From the NCBI RefSeq assembly GCF_000007225.1, contig NC_003364.1:990001-1022000 (forward strand): DNA of 32,000 nucleotides. Direction: 5' to 3'. The position numbers and the translations under genes are program-made. Source of the DNA: Pyrobaculum aerophilum str. IM2. GTDB lineage: Archaea; Thermoproteota; Thermoprotei; Thermoproteales; Thermoproteaceae. Numbering within the stretch: the stretch's first letter is position 1; every line of letters begins with the position of its first letter. This document shows positions 1,230 to 26,325 of the stretch, one piece after another. The notes below the pieces were generated by a model. It was given only the letters and a program-made list of their open reading frames with translations. It searched no databases and was not told where the DNA came from.

Positions 1230-2582
1230 ATGTCCATAAAGATTGAAGAGGTTAAAACTCAGTTTGAGCGTTTCGCCGCCCACAGCCATATAAAAGGCCT
1301 GGGCGTGAGGGATGGGAAAGTGGAATTTATAGGCGATGGCTTTGTCGGCCAAGTGGAGGCCCGCGAGGCGGCGTATATAGTTGTGAAGATGATAAAGGAG
1401 GGTAAATTCGCCGGTAAGGGCGTATTAATCGTAGGTCCCCCCGGCACTGGGAAAACGGCGTTGGCTTTGGGAATTGCGAGAGAGCTCGGCTCAGAGACGC
1501 CTTTTGTTGCGCTGTCAGGCGGCGAGATTTACTCGCTAGAAGTAAAGAAGTCGGAATTCCTTATGCGGGCACTACGCAGGGCAATTGGGATTAAGGTGAG
1601 GGAGTGGAGGAAGGTTTACGAGGGAGAGGTGAGGTCAATAGAACTGCGATACGGAAAGCATCCATACAACCCCTATTTACAGAGGGTAATGGGGGCCACT
1701 ATTAAATTGAGGACTAGAGACGAAGAGAAAGTTTTGCGAATTCCCGCGGAGATAGCTCAGCAGATTATTGAACTAGGAGTCGAAGAGGGCGATATCATTA
1801 TGATAGACGAGGAAACCGGCGCGGTGTCTGTTTTAGGTAGGGGAGAAGGCGGAGAGCAATACGACGTCGCGATTAAGAGAAGGGCGGAGCTGCCCAAGGG
1901 CCCCGTGTACAAGGAGAAAGAGATAGTGAGGTTTTTCACTCTGCACGATATAGACGTCTCTCTGGCGAGGCAGAGAGGCCTCATCTCGGCGATGATTTTC
2001 GGTTTTGCAGAGGAGGTAAAGGAGATACCCGACGAGGTTAGGAGGCAGAGCGACGAGATAGTGAAAAAGACTGTGGAGGAGGGCAAGGCGGAGCTGGTGC
2101 CCGGGGTGTTGTTTATAGACGATGCCCATCTGCTCGACATTGAGAGCTTTTCCTTCTTAATGCGGGCTATGGAGACGGAATTCGCCCCAATAATTATCAT
2201 GGCGACTAATAGGGGGATAGCTAAAATAAGGGGTACAGACGTCGAGGCTCCGCACGGCATTCCTCAAGACATGCTGGACAGGCTTGTTATTATAAAGACC
2301 AGGCCTTACACAGCCGAGGAGATAAGGGAGATTATTACCATTAAGGCAAAAGAGCAGAACATCTCGCTGAGTAAAGACGCCCTTGAGCTCCTAACTAAAA
2401 TAGGCGTTGAGCACTCTCTGCGTTATGCGTTACAACTTCTCACCCCTGCTTATATAATCGCAAAGGAGAGGGGAAAAGCCAGCGTCACAAAAGACGAGGT
2501 GGAATACGTAAAATCTCACTTTATATCAGTGAAAGAATCTGTTGAATACGTAAAGTCTTTAGAGGAGAAGTTTTTAAGATAA
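1230..2582 (+). CDS. TIP49 / RuvB-like AAA+ ATPase (TBP-interacting protein homologue)
   Basis: A 450-aa ORF with Walker A GPPGTGKT, Walker B VLFIDDAH and overall RuvBL1/2-like sequence (HSHIKGLG..., ...IIMATNRG...). Confidence 0.93.
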   Translation: MSIKIEEVKTQFERFAAHSHIKGLGVRDGKVEFIGDGFVGQVEAREAAYIVVKMIKEGKFAGKGVLIVGPPGTGKTALALGIARELGSETPFVALSGGEIYSLEVKKSEFLMRALRRAIGIKVREWRKVYEGEVRSIELRYGKHPYNPYLQRVMGATIKLRTRDEEKVLRIPAEIAQQIIELGVEEGDIIMIDEETGAVSVLGRGEGGEQYDVAIKRRAELPKGPVYKEKEIVRFFTLHDIDVSLARQRGLISAMIFGFAEEVKEIPDEVRRQSDEIVKKTVEEGKAELVPGVLFIDDAHLLDIESFSFLMRAMETEFAPIIIMATNRGIAKIRGTDVEAPHGIPQDMLDRLVIIKTRPYTAEEIREIITIKAKEQNISLSKDALELLTKIGVEHSLRYALQLLTPAYIIAKERGKASVTKDEVEYVKSHFISVKESVEYVKSLEEKFLR

Positions 2583-3041
2583 TTTCTTTTCAGCAATATA
2601 AATATTATAAATTGAATACAAAATAAAGACTTGGCCTATATCTAGATATATTTGAATATTATTTTTTACGTTTATCGTGTAAAAGAGGGGATAGATAGAG
2701 ACGCCGTAGCCAGGCGGCGACGACGTAAAGAGAAGGGTTAAGTAGTGGAAGACTGCCGCGGCAATTGACAGCATCGCTAACGTCCACCTAGCCCTTGCGT
2801 TAGGCTTGACGAAAAACGTCGCGACAATTGCGGCGAAAAGGAGTATTGTAAATATCACAGTTATCCTCCACGCGTAAAGCCAGAGAGGCGTAGAGGCGAT
2901 ATCTTTAACTCCATCAGGCGTCAACACTTTGTTAGACGGCGGCCTGATGGCGTCTGCTACAAACCGCTCCACTGGCATAAAGGCAGACGCAATGGCTACT
3001 ATAACGATGGCAATAAATAAGACTACTAATTGGCGCGTCAT
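2574..3041 (-). CDS. small polytopic membrane protein (about 4 TM segments), function unknown
   Basis: I place the start at ATG 3041-3039 (MTRQLVVLFIAIVIVAIASA...) rather than the track start at 3086, because the upstream codons belong to the duplicated 28-mer and cassette end. Several hydrophobic segments are present. The gene overlaps the convergent TIP49 3' end by 9 bp. Confidence 0.7.
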   Translation of the reverse strand: MTRQLVVLFIAIVIVAIASAFMPVERFVADAIRPPSNKVLTPDGVKDIASTPLWLYAWRITVIFTILLFAAIVATFFVKPNARARWTLAMLSIAAAVFHYLTLLFTSSPPGYGVSIYPLFYTINVKNNIQIYLDIGQVFILYSIYNIYIAEKKLS

Positions 3042-3065
3042 CTTATAGACTGTAAAATTCTGTAT
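3038..3065. repeat. left copy of a perfect 28-bp direct repeat tcatcttatagactgtaaaattctgtat
   Basis: Identical to 5070-5097 when read base by base. The flanking bases differ on both sides (g/a before, c/t after). Confidence 0.95.
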
Positions 3066-4224
3066 CATTTTTTGTTGCGCCAGCATACCACCTTAACAGC
3101 TCCCAACCGATACCCCTAAGTCTTGTCAAGGCGAATAGGTGATTTGTGACAAGTTTTACAGTTCCACTCTTTCCCTTTATCGCCTCGTCGCCGAGAAGTG
3201 TGGCTAGCACTAGGGCCTTCTCGTCATTTAGCCTCACGCTGGCTTGAATTCTTCCTCCAGTCGCGCCCCAAGTGAAATAGAAAGTCTTCACCACGCCGTT
3301 AATTTCGTACTCCACCACAACCCTAGGCCTGTTGTTATCCCATTCCACTCTCACACCTCTTATCACCGCTTTAATCCCCCTCTCGGCGTCTTCAGCCACT
3401 AATCCCCTAGGGTCGACGGTCTCGGCCTCCCTAGCCGGCCTTAGGTATTCCTCTAACAAGTCGGAGAAGCCCCTAGCTTTTGCAATCTCCTCCAAGCGTC
3501 TTAGCGCTCTCTCGGCCCAATCAATGCCCTGCCTTCTCAGCTCCTCTAAGCGCCAAATGCTGGTTGGCATTTTGAGGTACACGTGGCCCTTCGCACCGCC
3601 CTCCGGTCTTTTCGCAGTGAAGTGTACTCCCTCCACAAAGCCCGCACCCTTAAGCGCCTTTACAGCAGCGTCAAAGGCGGCAGAAGAGCCAGGCTGGTAT
3701 ACGATTACTAGCCACTTGGTTTTTCCGCTCTTTGTTTCCTTTTCTCTAAACCATACGCTTAGCTCCGCGCCAGCTATCTCAACTACGTTAGGTCCGGCGT
3801 TAATCTCTGTTAGCAATCTATCCCTCTGTTCCTTGCCTATTAAACCCCTCTTGTGCAACTCCTCCACGAGTGCCCTAACAGCGTCCAGCCACTCCACGCG
3901 GCGTATTGCGGTTATGGAATCTGTATACAGATTAACGCGCCAATCTCCGCCGTATTCCTTAACCTCAACTTTGGCACCTAGTACGCTCAGTATTGAAGCT
4001 AACCTCTCTGCATTTTCTTTGGCGCCATTGAAGTAGGCAAGTAGGCTTTTTCTATCCCGCCTTACGCTCACACGGGCAATTTCGTTCCCCTTTTCATCCC
4101 TGAACCTTACCTCAACCCACGGGTCAACACCAGGCGGGCTGTACAACGTATATTCAATTTTCAACTTGTCAATGTCTCTTTCCACGTGCCTCTTAATGTT
4201 ATCAATTTTTAAAGATGTGGTCAT
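3043..4224 (-). CDS. PaREP2b-like protein, short variant with one ALKxxGxxEGxHFT module and a disrupted N-terminal domain
   Basis: Clear homology to 7704..9581 and 24403..26325 (ENAERLASILSVLGAKVEVK..., AGPNVVEIAGAELSV..., RPAREAETVD...). The first in-frame ATG is at 4224 (MTTSLKIDNIK); the track ORF extends to 4332. The last 6 codons and the stop come from the duplicated target. Confidence 0.75.
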   Translation of the reverse strand: MTTSLKIDNIKRHVERDIDKLKIEYTLYSPPGVDPWVEVRFRDEKGNEIARVSVRRDRKSLLAYFNGAKENAERLASILSVLGAKVEVKEYGGDWRVNLYTDSITAIRRVEWLDAVRALVEELHKRGLIGKEQRDRLLTEINAGPNVVEIAGAELSVWFREKETKSGKTKWLVIVYQPGSSAAFDAAVKALKGAGFVEGVHFTAKRPEGGAKGHVYLKMPTSIWRLEELRRQGIDWAERALRRLEEIAKARGFSDLLEEYLRPAREAETVDPRGLVAEDAERGIKAVIRGVRVEWDNNRPRVVVEYEINGVVKTFYFTWGATGGRIQASVRLNDEKALVLATLLGDEAIKGKSGTVKLVTNHLFALTRLRGIGWELLRWYAGATKNDTEFYSL

Positions 4225-4556
4225 TGTAAATGACTTGCTCTCTGCCAAGTGTCCACAAGGCTGAAAGATCTCCCCACACGAGGAAGAACATTTTTGTGAC
4301 GTATTTAGTGTCGAAGAAAATCTTAACTGCATCTTTACTTACATATATTCCCTTGATGCCTACGCCGTATTTCGCGACAAGGAGTATGTACAGCGCGATT
4401 TTGTCGTACATATCAAGCAGGAGGCGTTTTGTGTCGTTATCAACTCTGAAGTTGTCAAGCGTGAGAGACGCTTCGCCAGTCCTCACATGTCAGTCAAAAA
4501 GCACTGCGTAGGCGAGGAATTTCACGACCTCTTCCTCTAACACGTCTATTACGGCG
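4225..4556 (-). pseudogene. degenerate N-terminal region of PaREP2b-like gene A (in-frame TGA plus frame change)
   Basis: The reverse-strand reading ...VVKFLAYAVLFD*HVRTGEASLTLD...LLVAKYGVGIKGIYVSKDAVKIFF... aligns with the LSPLAYAVETHRRGELS... N-terminus of B and C. It is interrupted by a TGA and is out of frame with 3043..4224. Confidence 0.55.
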
Positions 4557-4557
4557 G

Positions 4558-4933
4558 TTGAAGATTAAGGAAGAGGCGCTGGGCTCAGCGGCTGGGTGGT
4601 ATTTTCAATGCTTTGGAGAAACTGCAAACCCACTGAAAGTAGCAAAGAGGCTAGAGGAGTATTTCGCGCTGTGCCAGATGCGGACAGCGGCCAAGAGGGA
4701 ATTCGGAGTGGCGCTATCGGAGAGGGCGCTAAGAGGGGCCTTTTGGTGGGATGGGGAGTGGACGGGCAAGCCCGTGTCGTGCCTCGTCACGGAGAGGGAG
4801 GCGATGTGCAAGTGGGGGAAGTGCCAAGTGGAGATTTGCGGCGAGGGCGGGGACAGACGGCGTGTACATAAAGCCCGAAAGCCCCCTCTACCAGGAGTGG
4901 ATTAAGGCGGCCCACAGCGGCGGCGACAGTTGA
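4558..4933 (+). pseudogene. PaREP2a-like gene, frameshifted
   Basis: Frame 1 (4558..4905) carries ...ALRGAFWWDGEWTGKPVSCLVTEREAMCKWG. The conserved C-terminus KWRFAARAGTDGVYIKPESPLYQEWIKAAHSG lies in a second frame (4751..4933). There is one extra nucleotide relative to copy C within 4811-4830. Confidence 0.7.
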
Positions 4934-5069
4934 GGCGACGTGTGTAAAAGTGGCGCTACCAGAGGCCTTTTCCCTGCTTAATAATAAAGCCAATGGATTT
5001 GCCAATTTATTAACAATATATAGAAAGGAGAAACTCTATGTAGAAAGTATAATAGAAATTAAATGAATA

Positions 5070-5097
5070 TCATCTTATAGACTGTAAAATTCTGTAT
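5070..5097. repeat. right copy of the perfect 28-bp direct repeat
   Basis: Identical to 3038-3065. Here it encodes the last 9 codons and the TGA of the S2P protease gene. Confidence 0.95.
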
Positions 5098-6578
5098 TGT
5101 TCCCCTAATACGCCGAGGGCCAGGTTGAAAATTAAAATCGCCGCCAAAATCCACGTAACGGCGCTCACGACAGCGCCTCCCTTCTTCTCGCCTAGCTTGC
5201 GCTGGACTACTGCGGCTAGTAGCTGACCTCCGTCCAGCGGGTAGATGGGCAATGCGTTAAGCACAGCTAAGCCGTAGTTCACCACTATAAGCCAAAAGAT
5301 TAGTTTTGTAAAGTCGGTGTTGTAAAGCTCATTTCTTTTAATAGGCCCCTCGTCGTATCCCAACATTGGCAAACTGCCAGGCCCTAGGCCGTAGAATATC
5401 TTCCCTCCTCTTTCCACCAGCGTGACGTTTAAAACGAGTAAAGTGGCGTTTCTCTGCACATACACCTTCACCACGTCGCCGGGTTTACACACGCCTCTTG
5501 TCTCAATTACTGCTTTAAGCAGCTCCCCCCCGCTTCTCACTTCCCACACACGGCCGCAGCCTTCTATTTTTTTCACGACGTCTCCAGGCCTGACGCCTCC
5601 CAGATATAAAGAGCCGTCCGTGTAAAGCCAGTTAATCCTAGGAGACGTCGTAAAATTGGCGTAGTCGAGCGTTACTTCGTATTTGTGTAGCCAAGAGCTC
5701 GCCACAAGGGTTACTTTATCGCCTGGTTTACAGTCCGCTGTCTTGTTCACGCCTAAAAGCGGCCCCAGGCCGGCCAATATATTTAGCTTAGTTATAAAAT
5801 CGTCAGGAGTGTAGACTTTCTCATGCATCCCGCAACCGCGTATTTCAATTACTCTGTCGCCAGCTGGTATGTTATAGGCTGAGACTCCGAACACAGCCCC
5901 TTGTAGGCCCGCCCAAGCGCCCAGGACGCCTATTAGCATGGCGGCTAAAGCTAATACCACGTTAACGGCGACTCCGCTGGCTAGAACAGCCGCCTTCGCC
6001 TCTACACTTGCTTTTTTAAAACTATCCTCGTCAGGCTCAACAAAAGCCCCGCTTAATACGTAAAATATGGAGAATACTCCGACGGATTTTACAGGTATGT
6101 TATATCTAAGCGCCGCGTATCCGTGCATTAACTCGTGCAAAACCACAGCAAGTACGACGGCTACGGCCATGTAGGGCAACTGATCCCACGGCAGCGTAAC
6201 CCCTGGTATGATGGGGGTAACCCCCGCAGAGCGCGACGCCGCCTCTGCCACCGACGCGCCTCCGAGGAGCGACTGCACGGCGTTAAACGCGCCGCTTATT
6301 AACATGAAGAGAAAGCCTTGTATTATTAGAATCTGCCCATCTGGCCTCACAAAAGGCATTGCCAAGAATACAGGCAAGGCGAATAAAACCAGCACAACTA
6401 TTAAATACGCCTTTTTGGGCACAAAGCTAAGTCTTTTAGTGAACTTGACGACGTATTTCACTAAGTTTTCGCTTTTCCAGTATATAGCTACGTAATATTT
6501 TACAGCCTTTTTATTTATGATATACACTACTGCGATTATTACAAACCAACTGGCTATGAACACTATGACGGAGTCCAC
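5070..6578 (-). CDS. site-2 protease family (M50) membrane metalloprotease with PDZ-like insert
   Basis: A 502-aa ORF with an HELMHG zinc motif in a TM segment, the C-terminal NALPIYPLDGG motif typical of S2P/RseP, multiple TM helices and a large central soluble insert. Confidence 0.88.
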   Translation of the reverse strand: MDSVIVFIASWFVIIAVVYIINKKAVKYYVAIYWKSENLVKYVVKFTKRLSFVPKKAYLIVVLVLFALPVFLAMPFVRPDGQILIIQGFLFMLISGAFNAVQSLLGGASVAEAASRSAGVTPIIPGVTLPWDQLPYMAVAVVLAVVLHELMHGYAALRYNIPVKSVGVFSIFYVLSGAFVEPDEDSFKKASVEAKAAVLASGVAVNVVLALAAMLIGVLGAWAGLQGAVFGVSAYNIPAGDRVIEIRGCGMHEKVYTPDDFITKLNILAGLGPLLGVNKTADCKPGDKVTLVASSWLHKYEVTLDYANFTTSPRINWLYTDGSLYLGGVRPGDVVKKIEGCGRVWEVRSGGELLKAVIETRGVCKPGDVVKVYVQRNATLLVLNVTLVERGGKIFYGLGPGSLPMLGYDEGPIKRNELYNTDFTKLIFWLIVVNYGLAVLNALPIYPLDGGQLLAAVVQRKLGEKKGGAVVSAVTWILAAILIFNLALGVLGEQYRILQSIR

Positions 6579-7214: not shown

Positions 7215-7330
7215 AACTTTCGGTGTGGCTGAAGAGCTGAAAGAGGCGTTTTGGCGGGATGGGGGTGGCTGGGTTAATCCCTTTCATGTTTTGTGATGGG
7301 GCTGGGAGCGATATGTGACTCGGACGACTT
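7215..7330 (+). pseudogene. relic of a fourth PaREP2a-like sequence
   Basis: gaggcgttttggcgggatgggggtggctggg matches ggggccttttggtgggatggggagtggacggg of copy A (17 of 19 identical in the core). It translates to EAFWRDGGGW..., compared with GAFWWDGEW..., then is broken by stops. Confidence 0.5.
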
Positions 7331-7348
7331 TATGATGGTGTATTACGT

Positions 7349-7549
7349 CTAGTGTTGCCTTACGTGATGTTTATACTGCTGGCTCTTTACCTTTGAGTTG
7401 CATATGGGACAAACGACGTCATTTCCGCTTTTCTTTCCGTGATCTATATAGTGAGATACGACGTGCCTCCAGTCCACCTCTTTTTTACAATAGTGCACTT
7501 CACAGTAGTCACAGGCCTTGCGTAGTTCTGATCCGTACAGGCATAGCAC
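7349..7549 (-). CDS. small zinc-finger protein (CxxC...C plus C-terminal C2H2-like CPICx11HHx3H); the start is problematic
   Basis: A 66-codon ORF with only a GTG start. A 39-codon ORF (7444..7563) in the adjacent frame starts at an ATG correctly spaced from a TATA box. The two frames overlap at an A_AAA_AAG heptamer (see findings). Confidence 0.6.
   Translation of the reverse strand: MLCLYGSELRKACDYCEVHYCKKEVDWRHVVSHYIDHGKKSGNDVVCPICNSKVKSQQYKHHVRQH
7480..7486 (-). other. A_AAA_AAG heptamer (A6 run) at the junction of the two overlapping reading frames of the zinc-finger gene
   Basis: Reverse-strand codons GTA AAA AAG in the ATG-7563 frame. A -1 slip, or an A7 allele, continues into AAA AAA GAG GTG GAC... 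of the 7349..7549 frame. Confidence 0.4.
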
Positions 7550-7592: not shown

Positions 7593-7703
7593 CTCGATGT
7601 TGGCGTAAAGATATACTATGTAACGAAATCATAGCTCTTGGTATTAGTAAATGGACGCTCCCTAGACTGGTCATATGAATTAAAAGAGTGCGACGAAGTT
7701 GCG

Positions 7704-9581
7704 TTAATGGTTTTGCTCTTGTCTTTGCGGCCTCCCCTCTCTCCACTGGTCTATTGCGTCTTTTAGTGGTTTGAACCGGCGCAGGGCGTCTAGCTGGTCG
7801 GCGAGGAGGGCCACTCTGCCCTTTCTCGCCTTTCCCGTCAACGCCTTCAACACGGCTACCTCAACATCGTCTCTGACCGTTGGCCGTGCTATTTCGTAGT
7901 AATACGTGACAGTTGTTTTGCCCCTCTCTTCCCGTTTCCTCGCCCAGTACCACTCCATCTTCAACTGTCTCCTCTCCCCTCCAGCTTCGTACTCCGCGAT
8001 TATGCGCAGGCGGCAGTCCTCTCCGGCGCATTGGCCTACGGGTTGGTTGCCTTTAACGAACTCGTACTTTAGGCCTACAACACGGGCAATTAAGTTGCCT
8101 CTATCGTCGTAAACTGGCAACGACGAGTCCACAGTCCCCTCTTCTCTCGCTGGTTTAAGCACATCATTCAGCTTATTAACTGCATCTTGGCCGTACCTAC
8201 GCTCCAACACGTCCTTCAGTTTCCTGATGAAGCGTGCCGCCTCCTTGTCGCCGCCCAGCGCCATGCACTGAATTTCGCGGAGGCCGTCGTAGGTGATGTG
8301 GATTACGTAGTGTCCGCTCCACTTCACGGTGAAGTCTCTGCCCTCCTTAAGCCTCGCCGTCTTTAAGGCGTTTATAACTGCGTCCTTATGGTCTTTTTTG
8401 ACGCTGATTACGCGTTTTCCGTCATCAATAGTGAAGTGTTCGCCCTCCCTCAGCCCGCTCCGTGCTAAAGCCTCAACAGCCTTCGTATATGACTCGTCTG
8501 CTATGCGGATTTCATAACCGCCTTGTTCTGTCACCGTGAAGTGTCTTCCCTCCTCTAGCCCTCTGGCCTTTAAGGCGTTTATGGCAGCGTTTTTAGAGGC
8601 TTCACTGCTTGGTTGATATTTTACCTTTATACGCTTGACTCCTGTCTCGTAATAAACCGAGAACTCCGCGCCGGCGAATTTAACGGTGTTAGGCCCAGCC
8701 TCAATATCTTTCACCAGCTGTTTATACCTATCCTCGCTGATCAGCCCCTTGAGCCCCTCGACAAAGCCTTTTAGCGCGTTTAGCCACCCGTCGTGGCGGA
8801 TGGCTATTATGCCGTCTGTGGTGAGCTGGACTACCCATTTACCCTCAAGAGGTTTAACCTCTGCTACACCTCCAAGCGCTTTGATAATGGATGCTAACCG
8901 ATCGGCGTTTTCGCGTGAGCCGATGAACTGAGCTTGTAGCTCACTGCCGGTCCAATACACGTTTATATGTGCCACTTCTTGCCCGTCAATCTTGAAGCGG
9001 ATGACAGTCTTTGGATAACTCCTGCTTGTGTCCAGCGGATCTCTCTCCACAACAATGTTTCTGCGTAAGTAGTTCTCGACCATTGTTATGATCTCATTAA
9101 ACTTTTTGAAAAAGCTTTCCTCCCTCACGTCGTAAGCCCAATCTACGCCGTATTTTGCCCTTACCACCTCGCCGCTGATTGCTCTAAACGCGTCGGCGAA
9201 TTCTGACAGGGCGTCCCTCGGCTCGTACAGCCTTGGAAGCGCTGGGACTAACGCTTTCAGCAGTTCGTTCAGCTCGGCGCCTCTGAAGACGATGCGATGT
9301 GCATTTCTGCCAGGATATACCGCACTTGGCTTAAGGCCAAGCTCCCTAAGCGCCCAGAGCCAGAACACAGTGAAGTGGTCGCGAGTCATAATCGGACTTT
9401 TCTCTTTTTCGGGGCCGCCTACTACAAGCCCAATATCATCTCTTAACACAACCCCGTCGTACAACACTGAGAATGTTACCGCCAAGGCCGCTTCCTCTCT
9501 GGACAGTTCACCCCTTCTGTGAGTCTCCACGGCGTATGCCAGAGGCGAGAGAACGTGGAAATATTTAGGCAAAAATAGCAT
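7704..9581 (-). CDS. PaREP2b-family protein (cassette B), 625 aa
   Basis: A long open ORF, paralogous to 24403..26325 (91 of the first 110 residues identical by hand alignment) and to 3043..4224. I recognise the family name from memory of Pyrobaculum aerophilum repeat families; the function is unknown. Confidence 0.88.
   Translation of the reverse strand: MLFLPKYFHVLSPLAYAVETHRRGELSREEAALAVTFSVLYDGVVLRDDIGLVVGGPEKEKSPIMTRDHFTVFWLWALRELGLKPSAVYPGRNAHRIVFRGAELNELLKALVPALPRLYEPRDALSEFADAFRAISGEVVRAKYGVDWAYDVREESFFKKFNEIITMVENYLRRNIVVERDPLDTSRSYPKTVIRFKIDGQEVAHINVYWTGSELQAQFIGSRENADRLASIIKALGGVAEVKPLEGKWVVQLTTDGIIAIRHDGWLNALKGFVEGLKGLISEDRYKQLVKDIEAGPNTVKFAGAEFSVYYETGVKRIKVKYQPSSEASKNAAINALKARGLEEGRHFTVTEQGGYEIRIADESYTKAVEALARSGLREGEHFTIDDGKRVISVKKDHKDAVINALKTARLKEGRDFTVKWSGHYVIHITYDGLREIQCMALGGDKEAARFIRKLKDVLERRYGQDAVNKLNDVLKPAREEGTVDSSLPVYDDRGNLIARVVGLKYEFVKGNQPVGQCAGEDCRLRIIAEYEAGGERRQLKMEWYWARKREERGKTTVTYYYEIARPTVRDDVEVAVLKALTGKARKGRVALLADQLDALRRFKPLKDAIDQWREGRPQRQEQNH
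8274..8603 (-). repeat. three tandem modules of about 35 aa inside PaREP2b-B (A[IV]xALKxxGLxEGxHFTV...)
   Basis: The modules are NAAINALKARGLEEGRHFTVTEQGGYEIRI, AVEALARSGLREGEHFTIDDGKRVISV and AVINALKTARLKEGRDFTVKWSGHYVIHI. They are also similar at nucleotide level (gccttaaag...gaggag gg..cacttcac). Confidence 0.8.
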
Positions 9582-9687
9582 TGGCTGAGTACGGCGAAAA
9601 ATACGCCGAGCCTTTAATCAGCGAGTATGCCCTAAGAAGGGCCTTTTGGTGGGAGGGGGAATAGCGTGGCAAGCCGATGTCCTGTTT
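9478..9687. repeat. 210-bp core of the large inverted repeat, perfectly identical to the reverse complement of 24297-24506
   Basis: Read base by base. It covers the first 104 nt of the PaREP2b ORF plus 106 nt upstream. Identity stops abruptly at both ends. Confidence 0.85.
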
Positions 9688-9835
9688 TGTGACGGAGAAA
9701 AAGGCGGTGTGCAAGGTGGGAGAAAAAATGGCCGCGTTTTACGTATTTGACACCCCCCACGGCGTCTACTTAAGGCCGGAGATAAAGCTTGTGGACGACT
9801 GGATTAAAGTGGCGCATAGGGGAGATGATAAGTAA
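9590..9835 (+). pseudogene. PaREP2a-like remnant (cassette B): N-terminally truncated with an in-frame TAG; a residual 52-codon ORF spans 9677..9835
   Basis: It translates as AEYGEKYAEPLISEYALRRAFWWEGE*RGKPMSCFVTEKKAVCKVGEK...VDDWIKVAHRGDDK*. The TAG at 9662-9664 sits where copy A has TGG. Confidence 0.65.
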
Positions 9836-10063
9836 GGCAGTTAAGGCGGCGTGTGTAAAAGTGGCATTGCCTGAAGCATTTTCCTTACCGCGCAAATTCG
9901 GCGTTTCATGGGGGTGTTTCACGCAAGGGGCCTTCTACGGCGTTGACGCCGTTGTGGCAGAGGGTGGCGCTAAGGGGGTGTATGTACGTTACGTACTGCC
10001 TTACGACGTTGAGACAATCTGTGGTTTAAAAAATCTATTTAAACTCGTGGTGGAGGGCGTCTC

Positions 10064-11318: not shown

Positions 11319-11461
11319 ACCCCCTAGTAGAGAGGGATATATAAAATTTGGCCGGGGTAACCCGCCAGGCTCATCCGCCCCCGCTCAGGGGTGTTACCTA
11401 GGGCTAATCCTTTATTACTCCGAGTTTAAAATTTTTTCGACCCCACAATGAGGCCTTTCGG

Positions 11462-24107: not shown

Positions 24108-24118
24108 CCCATTAAGCT

Positions 24119-24394
24119 TTAAGGGCCTCCGATAGGGCGGTTTTTGCACACGTCGCCTTCGCCACTGTGGGCCACTTTAATCCACTCCTGGTATAGTGGG
24201 CTTTCTGGCTTTATGTACACGCCGTCTGCTCCCGCCCTCACTGTGAATCTCCACTTCGTGCTCCCCCACTTGCATACCGCCTCCCTCTCCGTCACGAAAC
24301 AGGACATCGGCTTGCCACGCTATTCCCCCTCCCACCAAAAGGCCCTTCTTAGGGCATACTCGCTGATTAAAGGCTCGGCGTATTTTTCGCCGTA
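24119..24394 (-). pseudogene. PaREP2a-like remnant (cassette C): N-terminally truncated with an in-frame TAG; a residual 62-codon ORF spans 24119..24307
   Basis: The reverse strand reads ...ALRRAFWWEGE*RGKPMSCFVTEREAVCKWGSTKWRFTVRAGADGVYIKPESPLYQEWIKVAHSGEGDVCKNRPIGGP*. The TAG is at 24322-24320. Confidence 0.65.
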
Positions 24395-24506
24395 CTCAGC
24401 CAATGCTATTTTTGCCTAAATATTTCCACGTTCTCTCGCCTCTGGCATACGCCGTGGAGACTCACAGAAGGGGTGAACTGTCCAGAGAGGAAGCGGCCTT
24501 GGCGGT
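24297..24506. repeat. 210-bp core of the large inverted repeat (partner of 9478-9687)
   Basis: Perfect reverse-complement identity when read base by base. Confidence 0.85.
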
Positions 24507-26325
24507 GATTTTCGCCGTGTTGTACGACGGGAGCGTATACAGAGACGAAATTCTGCTTGCCGTTGGCGGCCCCGAAAAAGAGGAAGAACCCCTCATGACT
24601 CACGACCACTTCACCGCGTTCTGGCTGTGGACGCTGAGAGAGCTGGGCTTCAAGCCAAGCTCAGTGCGTAGGGGCAGTAACGCGCACCGCATTTTCTTCA
24701 GAGGCGCCGAGCTGAACGAACTGCTGAAAGCGGTAACGCTGGCGCTGCCCACGTTACACAAGCTTAGGGACGCCCTTGCAGAATTTGCCGATGCATTTAA
24801 GGCCGTCAGCGGCGAGGCGATTAAAAGGAAATTCGGCATTGGCTTGGCGTACGACGTGAGGAACGAAAGTTTTTCAAAAAAGCTAGAGGAGATTATTACA
24901 ATGGCTGAGGACTACGTTTACAGAAACGTCACAGTGGAGAGGGGACCGCTGGACACCAGCGGGCGGTTGCCGAAGATCGTCATCAGCTTTAAGCTTGGCG
25001 ATGAGGAGGTGGCACACATAACCGTGTATTGGAGAGGTGATGAGCTTTATGCTCAATACGGTGGCTCCCGCGAAAGCGCCGAAAGGTTGGCCTCTGTCAT
25101 AAGAGCTCTCGGCGGTGATGCTGAGGTTAAGTACGTAAAGGGCGCCGGATGGGTAGTTAAGCTCACCACCGACGGCATAATTACCATTCGCCACGACGGG
25201 TGGCTAAAAGCGTTAAGGGAGTTTATAGACGAGCTACACGACGACAAGCGTCACGGCAAAAAGCTGATTAGCGATGAGAGGTATGAAAAGTTGATTAAAA
25301 ACATAGAAGCAGGTCCTAACATTGTAAAATTCTCCGGTGTGAAGTTCTCGGTTTATTACGAGACAAGGATGAAGAACATAATGGTAGAATATCAACCGCG
25401 CAACGATAACGCTAAAAACGCCGCTGTAGACGCCTTAAAGGCGAGGGGTCTGAAGGAGGGTGTACACTTCACTGTTAATACAGTGGGCGCTGGACGTTAC
25501 GAAATCCGCGTTACGAAAGAGGCATACGCCAAGGCCGTTGAGACTTTGGCACAGGTCGGGCTGAAGGAGGGCGAGCACTACGCTGTTTACGACAGATGGC
25601 GCATAATCAGTGTCAAGGCGGAGCATAAAGACGCCATCGTAAACGCCTTGAAGGCGGCAGGGCTTGAGGAGGGCAAGGACTTCGCAGTGAAGTGGGGCGG
25701 ATACTACGACATCCGTATCACCTACGACGGCCTTCGCGAAATTCAACGCATGGCGCTGAATGGCGACTTGGAGGCTGAAAGGTTCATAAGGGAGCTGGAG
25801 GACGTGCTTAGGCGCAGATACGGCGATGACGCGGCGAAAAAGCTGATTGAAGTGCTGACGCCCGCGAGGGAGGAGGGAACGGCGGAGCTTCCGTTAACAG
25901 TTTACGACGAGAGGGGCAACTTAATTGCCCGCGTTGTAGATCTGAAGTACGAGTTTGTAGAAAACGGCCAGCCGGTGAGCCACTGCGCTGGAAGGGACTG
26001 CCGCCTGCGCGTTGTCGTAGAATATGAATTGCCCAGCGGCGAGAGGAGAGAGTTCAAGATGGAGTGGTACTGGGCGGAGAAGCGGAAAAAGAAGGACAAT
26101 ACAACGGTGACGTATTATTACGAAACAGCACTGACCACTGTGAAGGACGAAGTGAAGGCCGCCGTGTTGAAGGCGCTGACCGGAAAGGCTAAGAGGGGCC
26201 AAGTGAGACTTCTTGCCGATCAGCTAGACGCCTTGCGTCGCTTTAAGGCCCTAAAAGACGCCATTGACAAGTGGAGAGGGGGAAAGCCGCAGAGCCGGCA
26301 GTTACAAAATCAAACTACTTTTTAA
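24403..26325 (+). CDS. PaREP2b-family protein (cassette C), 640 aa
   Basis: A long open ORF paralogous to 7704..9581. It has the same three tandem ALKxxGLxEGxHF modules (25411-25740) and the same C-terminal ...LLADQLDALRRFKALKDAIDKW. Confidence 0.88.
   Translation: MLFLPKYFHVLSPLAYAVETHRRGELSREEAALAVIFAVLYDGSVYRDEILLAVGGPEKEEEPLMTHDHFTAFWLWTLRELGFKPSSVRRGSNAHRIFFRGAELNELLKAVTLALPTLHKLRDALAEFADAFKAVSGEAIKRKFGIGLAYDVRNESFSKKLEEIITMAEDYVYRNVTVERGPLDTSGRLPKIVISFKLGDEEVAHITVYWRGDELYAQYGGSRESAERLASVIRALGGDAEVKYVKGAGWVVKLTTDGIITIRHDGWLKALREFIDELHDDKRHGKKLISDERYEKLIKNIEAGPNIVKFSGVKFSVYYETRMKNIMVEYQPRNDNAKNAAVDALKARGLKEGVHFTVNTVGAGRYEIRVTKEAYAKAVETLAQVGLKEGEHYAVYDRWRIISVKAEHKDAIVNALKAAGLEEGKDFAVKWGGYYDIRITYDGLREIQRMALNGDLEAERFIRELEDVLRRRYGDDAAKKLIEVLTPAREEGTAELPLTVYDERGNLIARVVDLKYEFVENGQPVSHCAGRDCRLRVVVEYELPSGERREFKMEWYWAEKRKKKDNTTVTYYYETALTTVKDEVKAAVLKALTGKAKRGQVRLLADQLDALRRFKALKDAIDKWRGGKPQSRQLQNQTTF

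Follow-up and report, generated by a model that had tools for sequence, protein, structure and literature searches.

In a stretch of 32,000 nucleotides of Pyrobaculum aerophilum str. IM2 (contig NC_003364.1, positions 990,001 to 1,022,000; the whole stretch is called the window in the following) a cassette of the PaREP2 repeat family, here named cassette A, separates the gene of an S2P protease from the gene of a small membrane protein. The cassette arrived in one insertion of 2004 bp, which duplicated 27-28 bp of host sequence and left both flanking genes preserved. Among the lineage-specific repeat families of Pyrobaculum genomes PaREP2 ranks with the largest, and indels and rearrangements that separate species and strains coincide with its copies; the label "putative transposon" has so far been given to it without a footprint. 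The S2P locus is the first clean comparison between a filled and an empty PaREP2 site that we found. It fixes the boundaries of the insert to the base, and it shows both the duplication of host sequence and the position of the PaRep2b-side end of the unit at a stop codon.

A duplicated gene end at the S2P locus

The locus is composed of the following features (window coordinates; an asterisk in a protein sequence marks a stop).

2574..3041, minus strand: membrane-protein gene, 155 amino acids, downstream member of the ancestral gene pair
3038..3065, no strand: left 28-bp repeat copy, duplicate of the S2P 3' end
3066..4540, minus strand: PaRep2b gene of cassette A (short A-type)
4558..4933, plus strand: PaRep2a gene of cassette A, divergent from PaRep2b
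4934..4973, plus strand: non-coding segment 3' of PaRep2a, candidate family terminus on the PaRep2a side
4974..5069, no strand: AT-rich tail of the insert, 96 bp, 23% GC, no match in the other PaREP2 copies examined or in the 40 fetched loci
5070..5097, no strand: right 28-bp repeat copy, the functional S2P 3' end (..QYRILQSIR*)
5070..6578, minus strand: S2P (Peptidase_M50) gene, 502 amino acids, upstream member of the ancestral ATGA-overlapped pair

The 28-mer TCATCTTATAGACTGTAAAATTCTGTAT matches the window at 3038-3065 and 5070-5097 only, even if up to three mismatches are allowed. The two copies are identical, the bases bordering them are different, and 2004 bp are enclosed between them. 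A separate repeat search recovered the same 28-bp pair with a spacing of 2032 bp, and a match of this kind was seen in 0 out of 100 dinucleotide-preserving shuffles. Together with the presence of the same structure in ten independent assemblies, the shuffles rule out chance or an assembly artefact as the origin of the repeat. The right copy represents the last nine codons and the TGA of the S2P gene (..EQYRILQSIR*). The left copy provides the membrane-protein gene with its ATG (3041-3039, minus strand) and, in another frame, PaRep2b with its last seven codons and TAA (3043-3045). Orthologues of the membrane protein begin with MTRQL.. or MK.. at the matching place. An open reading frame (ORF) of 170 amino acids starting from 3086 was considered as the membrane-protein gene and rejected, as the starts of the orthologues match the version of 155 amino acids. 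If one repeat copy and the 2004 bp are removed, the sequence reads ...CAGTCTATAAGATGACGCGCC, with the stop and the start overlapping as ATGA. The initial annotation of this stretch had described the identical 28-mers with their differing flanks, had assigned the right copy to the end of S2P and the left copy to the start of the membrane-protein gene, and had stated that the interval holds only a divergent PaRep2b/PaRep2a pair; these points are in agreement with the window scan, shuffles and repeat search, with the translation, with the starts of the orthologues and with the Pfam matches, respectively.

The ancestral arrangement was sought in other Pyrobaculum lineages, at S2P loci whose protein is 67-76% identical to that of the window, within a total of 40 fetched loci. 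Twelve distinct contigs from these lineages carry an empty site (L011-L015, L020 and L022-L028, where L026 is the same contig as L011). The S2P and the membrane-protein gene are contiguous in all twelve and overlap as ATGA in ten (L011, L012, L013, L020, L022-L028); in the remaining two (L014 and L015) they abut as ..TAAC ATG... A metagenome scan with a degenerate form of the 28-mer returned nine contigs, eight of them empty, all with the ATGA overlap, and one filled (L021, of the P. aerophilum type). The contiguous pair that had been predicted for relatives at the outset is hence present, and the claim that a deletion restores the ATGA-joined pair holds for the reconstruction as well as for the empty sites. 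The locus thereby offers a clear example of an insertion between two overlapping and translationally coupled genes that was neutralised by duplication of the junction.

In every empty site the region of the 28-mer is the conserved end of S2P (..EQY[RK][IV]L[QE][SA]IR*), which differs from the window by synonymous changes only or by conservative replacements. As these lineages are without the insertion, the 28-mer belongs to the host target. The two other PaREP2 cassettes of the window (B and C, described below) lack it, and among the 40 fetched loci it was found at the S2P site only, with no occurrence in the 30 loci away from S2P. The possibility that the 28-mer is a terminal sequence of PaREP2 copies genome-wide, which had been named initially as the finding that would speak against an insertion footprint, is therefore rejected. 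We also found no independent insertion at the S2P site in another lineage (12 empty contigs), so a site-specific hotspot is rejected.

All ten P. aerophilum-type contigs showing the S2P-side junction are filled (L001-L008, L010 and L021). They originate from isolates, metagenome-assembled genomes and read sets; both repeat copies are spanned in L001-L005, and L021 stops one base before the second copy is complete. A further contig (L009) ends inside the S2P stop codon and was excluded as uninformative. No empty P. aerophilum-type allele and no sign of excision was found in the samples examined. As all ten informative contigs are filled, the insertion looks fixed in P. aerophilum.

The two repeat copies show no difference, compared to about 1.2 substitutions per site at the 4-fold degenerate sites of S2P relative to the nearest empty lineage, and the insertion is thus young relative to that lineage split. 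The two repeats contain approximately 25-35 weakly constrained positions, for which zero differences imply a divergence below about 0.1. The insertion might accordingly date to about the last tenth of the branch since the nearest empty lineage, and it is older than the approximately 0.1% divergence among the sampled strains.

The inserted unit and its decay

Cassette A is a bona fide member of the PaREP2 family, as both of its genes match strongly. The ORF at 3043-4332 (minus strand) matches PaRep2b (PF07775, E 1.5e-113), an N-terminal piece at 4202-4486 also matches, and the ORF at 4558-4905 (plus strand) matches PaRep2a (PF07903, E 5.5e-35). The annotated paREP2b of P. aerophilum IM2 (AAL63662.1) and the PaRep2b of the cassette are the same protein.

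The cassette is decaying, which is evident from three lesions. In all strains an in-frame TGA at 4490-4492 (minus strand) takes the place of the Gly in the conserved ..V[IL][FY]DG.. motif (..KFLAYAVLFD*HVRTGEA..), which is why the annotated PaRep2b restarts at the GTG at 4486. This TGA could be either a shared nonsense mutation or a recoded stop. Strains of the IM2 type (the window, L003 and L004) additionally possess a 2-bp deletion near 4205 that splits PaRep2b into the ORFs 3043-4332 and 4202-4486, compared to L001, L002 and L021, where PaRep2b is intact at 481 amino acids. A frameshift near 4821 disrupts PaRep2a in the window and, with the exception of L001, in all other complete filled contigs. 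In L001 a tract of approximately 100 bp (window 4752-4852) differs by 28 substitutions and one indel from four strains that are otherwise 99.9% identical, and this tract restores a PaRep2a ORF of 124 amino acids. The tract is a clear case of ectopic gene conversion from another PaRep2a copy.

The PaRep2b-side boundary of the insert can be related to the protein end. A-type PaRep2b proteins usually end with ..GVGWELLRWYAEVMRE (..WYAEVMRE). The protein of cassette A reads ..WYAGATKN followed by DTEFYSL*, where these last seven residues and the stop are encoded by the duplicated host 28-mer, and the end of the insert at 3066 coincides with the usual position of the stop codon in the family. If the A6 run at 3068-3073 had formerly been an A7 run, the protein would have ended ..WYAGATKK at canonical length, followed by a stop codon astride the boundary (TG on one side and A on the other). 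Owing to this possible slip from A7 to A6, or to the ambiguous base at the boundary, the duplication is given as 27 or 28 bp.

PaRep2b has the same orientation as the S2P and the membrane-protein gene, and its frame reads into the duplicated target and stops one nucleotide before the ATG of the latter (TAA G ATG). Judging from this collinear layout the membrane-protein gene is now probably expressed from the PaRep2b transcript.

On the PaRep2a side, the stop of PaRep2a is followed by a segment of about 40-45 bp (GGCGACGTGTGTAAAAGTGGCGCTACCAGAGGCCTTT) that shows 79-83% conservation across cassette A, cassette B (9845-9884) and cassette C (reverse complement of 24121-24158), despite an identity of only 33-35% among their PaRep2b proteins. 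This conservation suggests a possible cis-acting end; a conserved or covarying fold was not found in the segment. The adjoining 96-bp tail may be flanking DNA of the donor or filler DNA. The insert ends read CATTTT.. and ..GAATA, and there are no terminal inverted repeats that pair 3066 with 5069. The left end of the insert has no match in any fetched locus, and there is no Rfam match between 2500 and 5600 and thus no RNA gene at the ends.

Other PaREP2 copies and the PaRep2b protein

Three PaREP2 cassettes are located within the window. Cassettes B and C have the same PaRep2b/PaRep2a layout as A and served as comparators.

7603..10010, minus strand: cassette B, with a PaRep2b of 625 amino acids (7704-9581) and a PaRep2a pseudogene (about 9583-9835, plus strand)
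24108..26325, plus strand: cassette C, with a PaRep2b of 640 amino acids (24403-26325) and PaRep2a on the minus strand

Cassette B sits in a block inserted between a gene of 190 amino acids and a DUF2208 gene, which are only 38-47 bp apart in L011, L013 and L014. This block extends from 7211 to about 10010 and includes, in addition to cassette B, a PaRep2a-like fragment (7230-7290) and a small zf-Di19-like gene (7349-7549). It is a second, composite insertion without a flanking repeat. Cassette C lies at most 13 bp from the stop of the S17 gene and 3 bp from the ATG of the ERCC4 gene, which leaves no space for a 28-bp duplicate. Both flanks were visible for seven cassettes besides A, namely B and C, three copies from P. 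oguniense (L016-L018) and two from metagenome contigs (L039 and L040). A flanking direct repeat above shuffled controls was present in 0 out of these 7, and the long flanking repeats that the initial annotation had suggested looking for at other PaREP2 copies were thus not seen. The 28-bp duplication does not seem to be characteristic of the family. The PaRep2b-side end of the unit, by comparison, is consistently tight: the PaRep2b stop is located 0-18 bp from the neighboring gene in cassette C, L016, L019, L039 and L040.

The layout with two genes is not universal in PaREP2, as no PaRep2a was detected beside any of the three P. oguniense copies. In two of them (L017 1658-5389 and L018 1640-5422) the A-type PaRep2b domain forms the C-terminal third of single ORFs of 1243-1260 amino acids. 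One and the same codon (WWEGE*) is an in-frame TAG in the PaRep2a genes of cassettes B (about 9660-9665, plus strand) and C (about 24310-24315, minus strand), compared to TGG (Trp) in cassette A. This TAG could be either a pseudogene lesion common to both cassettes or a site of readthrough that has been conserved.

In the closely related strains L001 and L002 synteny with the window breaks off exactly where cassette B ends on its PaRep2b side (about 7602-7608). L002 has a PaRep2b fragment, truncated at its 5' end and followed by PaRep2a in inverted orientation, directly next to host DNA (window 594 versus L002:11987). PaREP2 copies mark breakpoints of strain-level rearrangements. A similar association is known from the P. 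oguniense genome, for which PaREP2 was linked to large indels relative to P. arsenaticum and PaREP2b was called a putative transposon (PMC3558965). A PaREP2 insertion footprint, its boundaries or a mechanism was not found in the searchable literature, to which cassette A adds a filled site and its empty counterparts, resolved to the base pair, with a 28-bp duplication. Other paREP families are toxin-antitoxin-like modules (PMC2701414); for PaREP2 we found no evidence of this kind.

There is no close donor for cassette A. All members of the PaRep2b cluster at 90% identity end in the host-encoded NDTEFYSL and therefore derive from the S2P locus itself. In a collection of 5.8 billion clusters no further relative, the other IM2 copies included, exceeds 70% identity. 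A surviving donor copy is present neither in IM2 nor in any sampled genome, and a scan of genome contigs gave three distant P. oguniense loci only. A young insertion without a close sibling implies that the cassette moved by cut-and-paste, that the donor was lost, or that the DNA came from a genome outside the sample. The PaRep2b family is tiny and restricted to Pyrobaculum (49 representatives among 1.84 billion proteins), and it is absent from viral contigs, plasmids and phages in the collections searched, so that no carrier element is apparent.

The initial annotation had stated that the cassette encodes no recognisable transposase or integrase. Our searches of Pfam, NCBIfam, PADLOC, PHROGs and PDB sequences agree with this statement, and NCBIfam, PADLOC, PHROGs and PDB gave no meaningful match regarding the function of the PaREP2 proteins. 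The cassette has no homologue of Cas1 or of a casposase, and neither the cassette nor the window contains a reverse transcriptase. A hint towards a function arises from the structure model. The AlphaFold model of the long-form PaRep2b of cassette B (predicted local distance difference test score, pLDDT, of 86.5) begins with an N-terminal alpha-beta-beta-alpha-beta-beta-alpha domain, continues with approximately six beta-beta-alpha repeats and ends in a sheet of long hairpins at the C-terminus. Comparing the full-length model with the PDB by Foldseek, 35 of the top 37 matches are LAGLIDADG homing endonucleases or their relatives, among them I-OnuI, I-PanMI and the Thermoproteus intron enzyme I-Tsp061I, with a probability of 0.98 but E values of about 1e-3 and template modeling (TM) scores below 0.3. 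For the N-terminal domain folded alone the first matches are designed alpha/beta proteins; I-DmoI or intein endonuclease domains are retrieved only at E 0.2-0.8. Helix 2 ends with an invariant Asp-Gly pair. With a profile of the domain no LAGLIDADG sequence family was found in Pfam (E up to 10) or among PDB sequences. The fold may thus be regarded as weakly LAGLIDADG-like, which is a lead and not a result. LAGLIDADG enzymes leave overhangs of 4 nt, so this assignment would not explain a duplication of 28 bp.

Readings of the insertion and further features of the window

The reading we favor, with about even confidence, is that the cassette was inserted a single time, at a staggered break that was then filled in. 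The 2004 bp entered the ATGA junction once, in the lineage leading to P. aerophilum, with the cotranscribed S2P and membrane-protein genes as the target. The inserted piece consisted of PaRep2b, PaRep2a on the opposite strand, the conserved segment of about 40 bp and 96 bp of unrelated AT-rich DNA. Most likely the break was staggered, the fragment was joined to it and the single-stranded ends were filled in, which would leave a target-site duplication of about 28 bp and not an attachment (att) core. With the duplication S2P retained its own last nine codons and stop, and the membrane-protein gene its own start and 24 upstream bases; as both gene ends were kept, the insertion was probably harmless, tolerated and fixed. 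The enzyme could have been a once-intact PaRep2b or something acting in trans. The lack of a duplication at the seven other cassettes indicates that the break probably had an irregular stagger, as opposed to the fixed one of a dedicated transposase. An irregular event is also favored over a transposase with a fixed stagger because of the non-family tail and the lack of inverted repeats.

Several points weigh against this proposal. It is built on a single case, and none of the seven other cassettes has a flanking repeat. The insert ends carry no terminal inverted repeats, and with no transposase or integrase match in the databases searched no enzyme can be named. Without a donor, microhomology at the junctions cannot be checked, and fill-in cannot be separated from template switching. 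Furthermore, the identity of the repeats could partly stem from selection on both copies, which would weaken the age estimate, and the proposed cotranscription of PaRep2b with the membrane-protein gene is based on the gene layout.

Template switching during replication or break repair, of the type of microhomology-mediated break-induced replication (MMBIR) or synthesis-dependent strand annealing (SDSA), is a serious rival, though in our estimation a rather doubtful one. A 3' end at the junction would have invaded a PaREP2 locus or foreign DNA, copied the cassette with its flank and re-annealed 28 bp upstream. The 96 bp of AT-rich, intergenic-like, non-family DNA are what is expected of a copied donor flank, other copies are without a duplication, inverted repeats and a transposase are missing, and ectopic exchange between PaREP2 copies is seen in the 100-bp conversion tract of L001 and in the 5'-truncated PaRep2b fragment of L002 that abuts host DNA. 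A random endpoint, however, would rarely fall within one base of the PaRep2b stop position, and the process should leave a donor, yet none exists in IM2 or the sampled genomes (the donor could be foreign DNA). The tight PaRep2b-side end and the conserved 45-bp segment are in turn the best arguments for family-specific machinery, that is, for a dedicated PaREP2 transposable element that cleaves its targets by means of its own PaRep2b, perhaps aided by PaRep2a, at positions staggered by about 28 bp, cassette A being young or constrained enough to have kept the duplication. We consider such an element unlikely. It would account for a multi-copy family with three cassettes in 32 kb, for copies coinciding with strain-specific synteny breaks and with the large indels between P. 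oguniense and P. arsenaticum (PMC3558965), for a reproducible end at the PaRep2b stop codon, for a segment conserved despite 33% PaRep2b identity, and for a full-length PaRep2b model that retrieves almost only LAGLIDADG enzymes and has the invariant Asp-Gly at the end of helix 2. The length of the duplication has a precedent in the bacterial IS1202 group of insertion sequences, whose members duplicate 16-28 bp of their target and possess a TnsB-like DDE transposase as well as inverted repeats of 24-26 bp ending TGT..ACA (PMC10132070). The view taken initially that 28 bp is far beyond typical duplications of insertion sequences thus holds insofar as the length is unusual, but it is not without parallel. 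Compared to this group, however, cassette A has neither a DDE transposase nor inverted repeats, and its PaREP2 relatives are without a consistent duplication; likewise, a classical insertion sequence or DDE transposon would show inverted repeats, a transposase and a constant duplication length, and here 28 bp occur once and none at the seven others, cassette C not even having room for it. The non-family tail of 96 bp lies inside the duplication, and near-identical copies, as expected of an active transposon, are absent, the closest paralogues being at most 70% identical in protein. The fold match, moreover, is weak in E value and TM score, is not shared by the N-terminal domain, which prefers designed proteins, has no support from sequence profiles, and would point to overhangs of 4 and not 28 nt. 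Free-standing LAGLIDADG homing endonuclease genes are, like PaREP2, compact selfish cassettes wedged precisely between host genes, and PaRep2b resembles them in its N-terminal topology and in the invariant Asp-Gly at the helix end, as far as a weak match without profile support allows; homing, in contrast to the event at cassette A, leaves no target duplication and needs homologous flanks, and the corresponding PaRep2b motif holds a stop codon here. An extended version, which we regard as a long shot, is that PaREP2 represents an unrecognised class of archaeal mobile elements, in which a LAGLIDADG-derived, multi-repeat, DNA-binding PaRep2b, helped by PaRep2a, would insert the cassette between genes with one terminus fixed at its own stop and a wide stagger that can duplicate about 28 bp, and with no DDE, tyrosine, serine, HUH or Cas1 enzyme involved.

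The initial annotation had left the choice between a target-duplicating insertion and recombination through an att-like core. The former part is in agreement with the empty sites and the host origin of the 28-mer, and the latter is disfavored because the 28-mer is ancestral host sequence, present in uninserted lineages, and occurs in no other PaREP2 copy examined. Integration of a small PaREP2 circle, in which the 28-mer serves as an attP-like core for site-specific or homologous recombination, would fit a perfect repeat at a gene 3' end that is restored exactly, as at typical att sites. We nevertheless judge it very improbable, as nothing is integrated at the site in other lineages (12 empty contigs), the 2004 bp hold only two PaREP2 genes and no integrase, PaRep2b is absent from viral contigs, plasmids and phages, and no empty or excised P. 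aerophilum-type allele is present in the samples examined. Archaeal integrative elements with SSV-type or pNOB8-type integrases likewise produce a perfect direct repeat of tens of bp and restore the 3' end of the target gene; cassette A differs from them in its payload of 2 kb, in the missing integrase and in the ancestral nature of a repeat shared with no other copy. Archaeal precedents for long duplications are also provided by casposons and by spacer integration into arrays of clustered regularly interspaced short palindromic repeats (CRISPR), where Cas1-mediated staggered integration duplicates 14-15 bp or a whole repeat. Cassette A, however, possesses neither a Cas1 or casposase homologue nor terminal inverted repeats. 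A route over RNA, in which a transcript ending at the PaRep2b stop is reverse transcribed at a primed target, would give one defined and one variable end with a variable duplication; this corresponds to the defined PaRep2b 3' side, the variable other side and a duplication that is present here and nowhere else. It is hardly credible all the same, since the cassette and the window lack a reverse transcriptase, promoter-like AT-rich DNA and two genes on opposite strands are unlike a processed transcript, and there is no poly-A or comparable 3' signature.

The locus shows that PaREP2 can insert into new sites; how, or by which enzyme, it does not reveal. The earlier statement that the family is or was mobile is in this sense confirmed for insertion into a new site, by one copy. 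As other copies are without duplications, the locus does not establish a new transposition mechanism.

Two further features of the window are distant from cassette A. PyrR205, a Pyrobaculum H/ACA-like small RNA (Rfam RF02803, 86 bits), is located at 11347-11407 on the minus strand and is unrelated to the insertion. Between approximately 19090 and 22610 we observed nested inverted repeats with arms of 59-115 nt that are 73-92% complementary, which suggest that a gene block was duplicated in inverted orientation around 21.3 kb.

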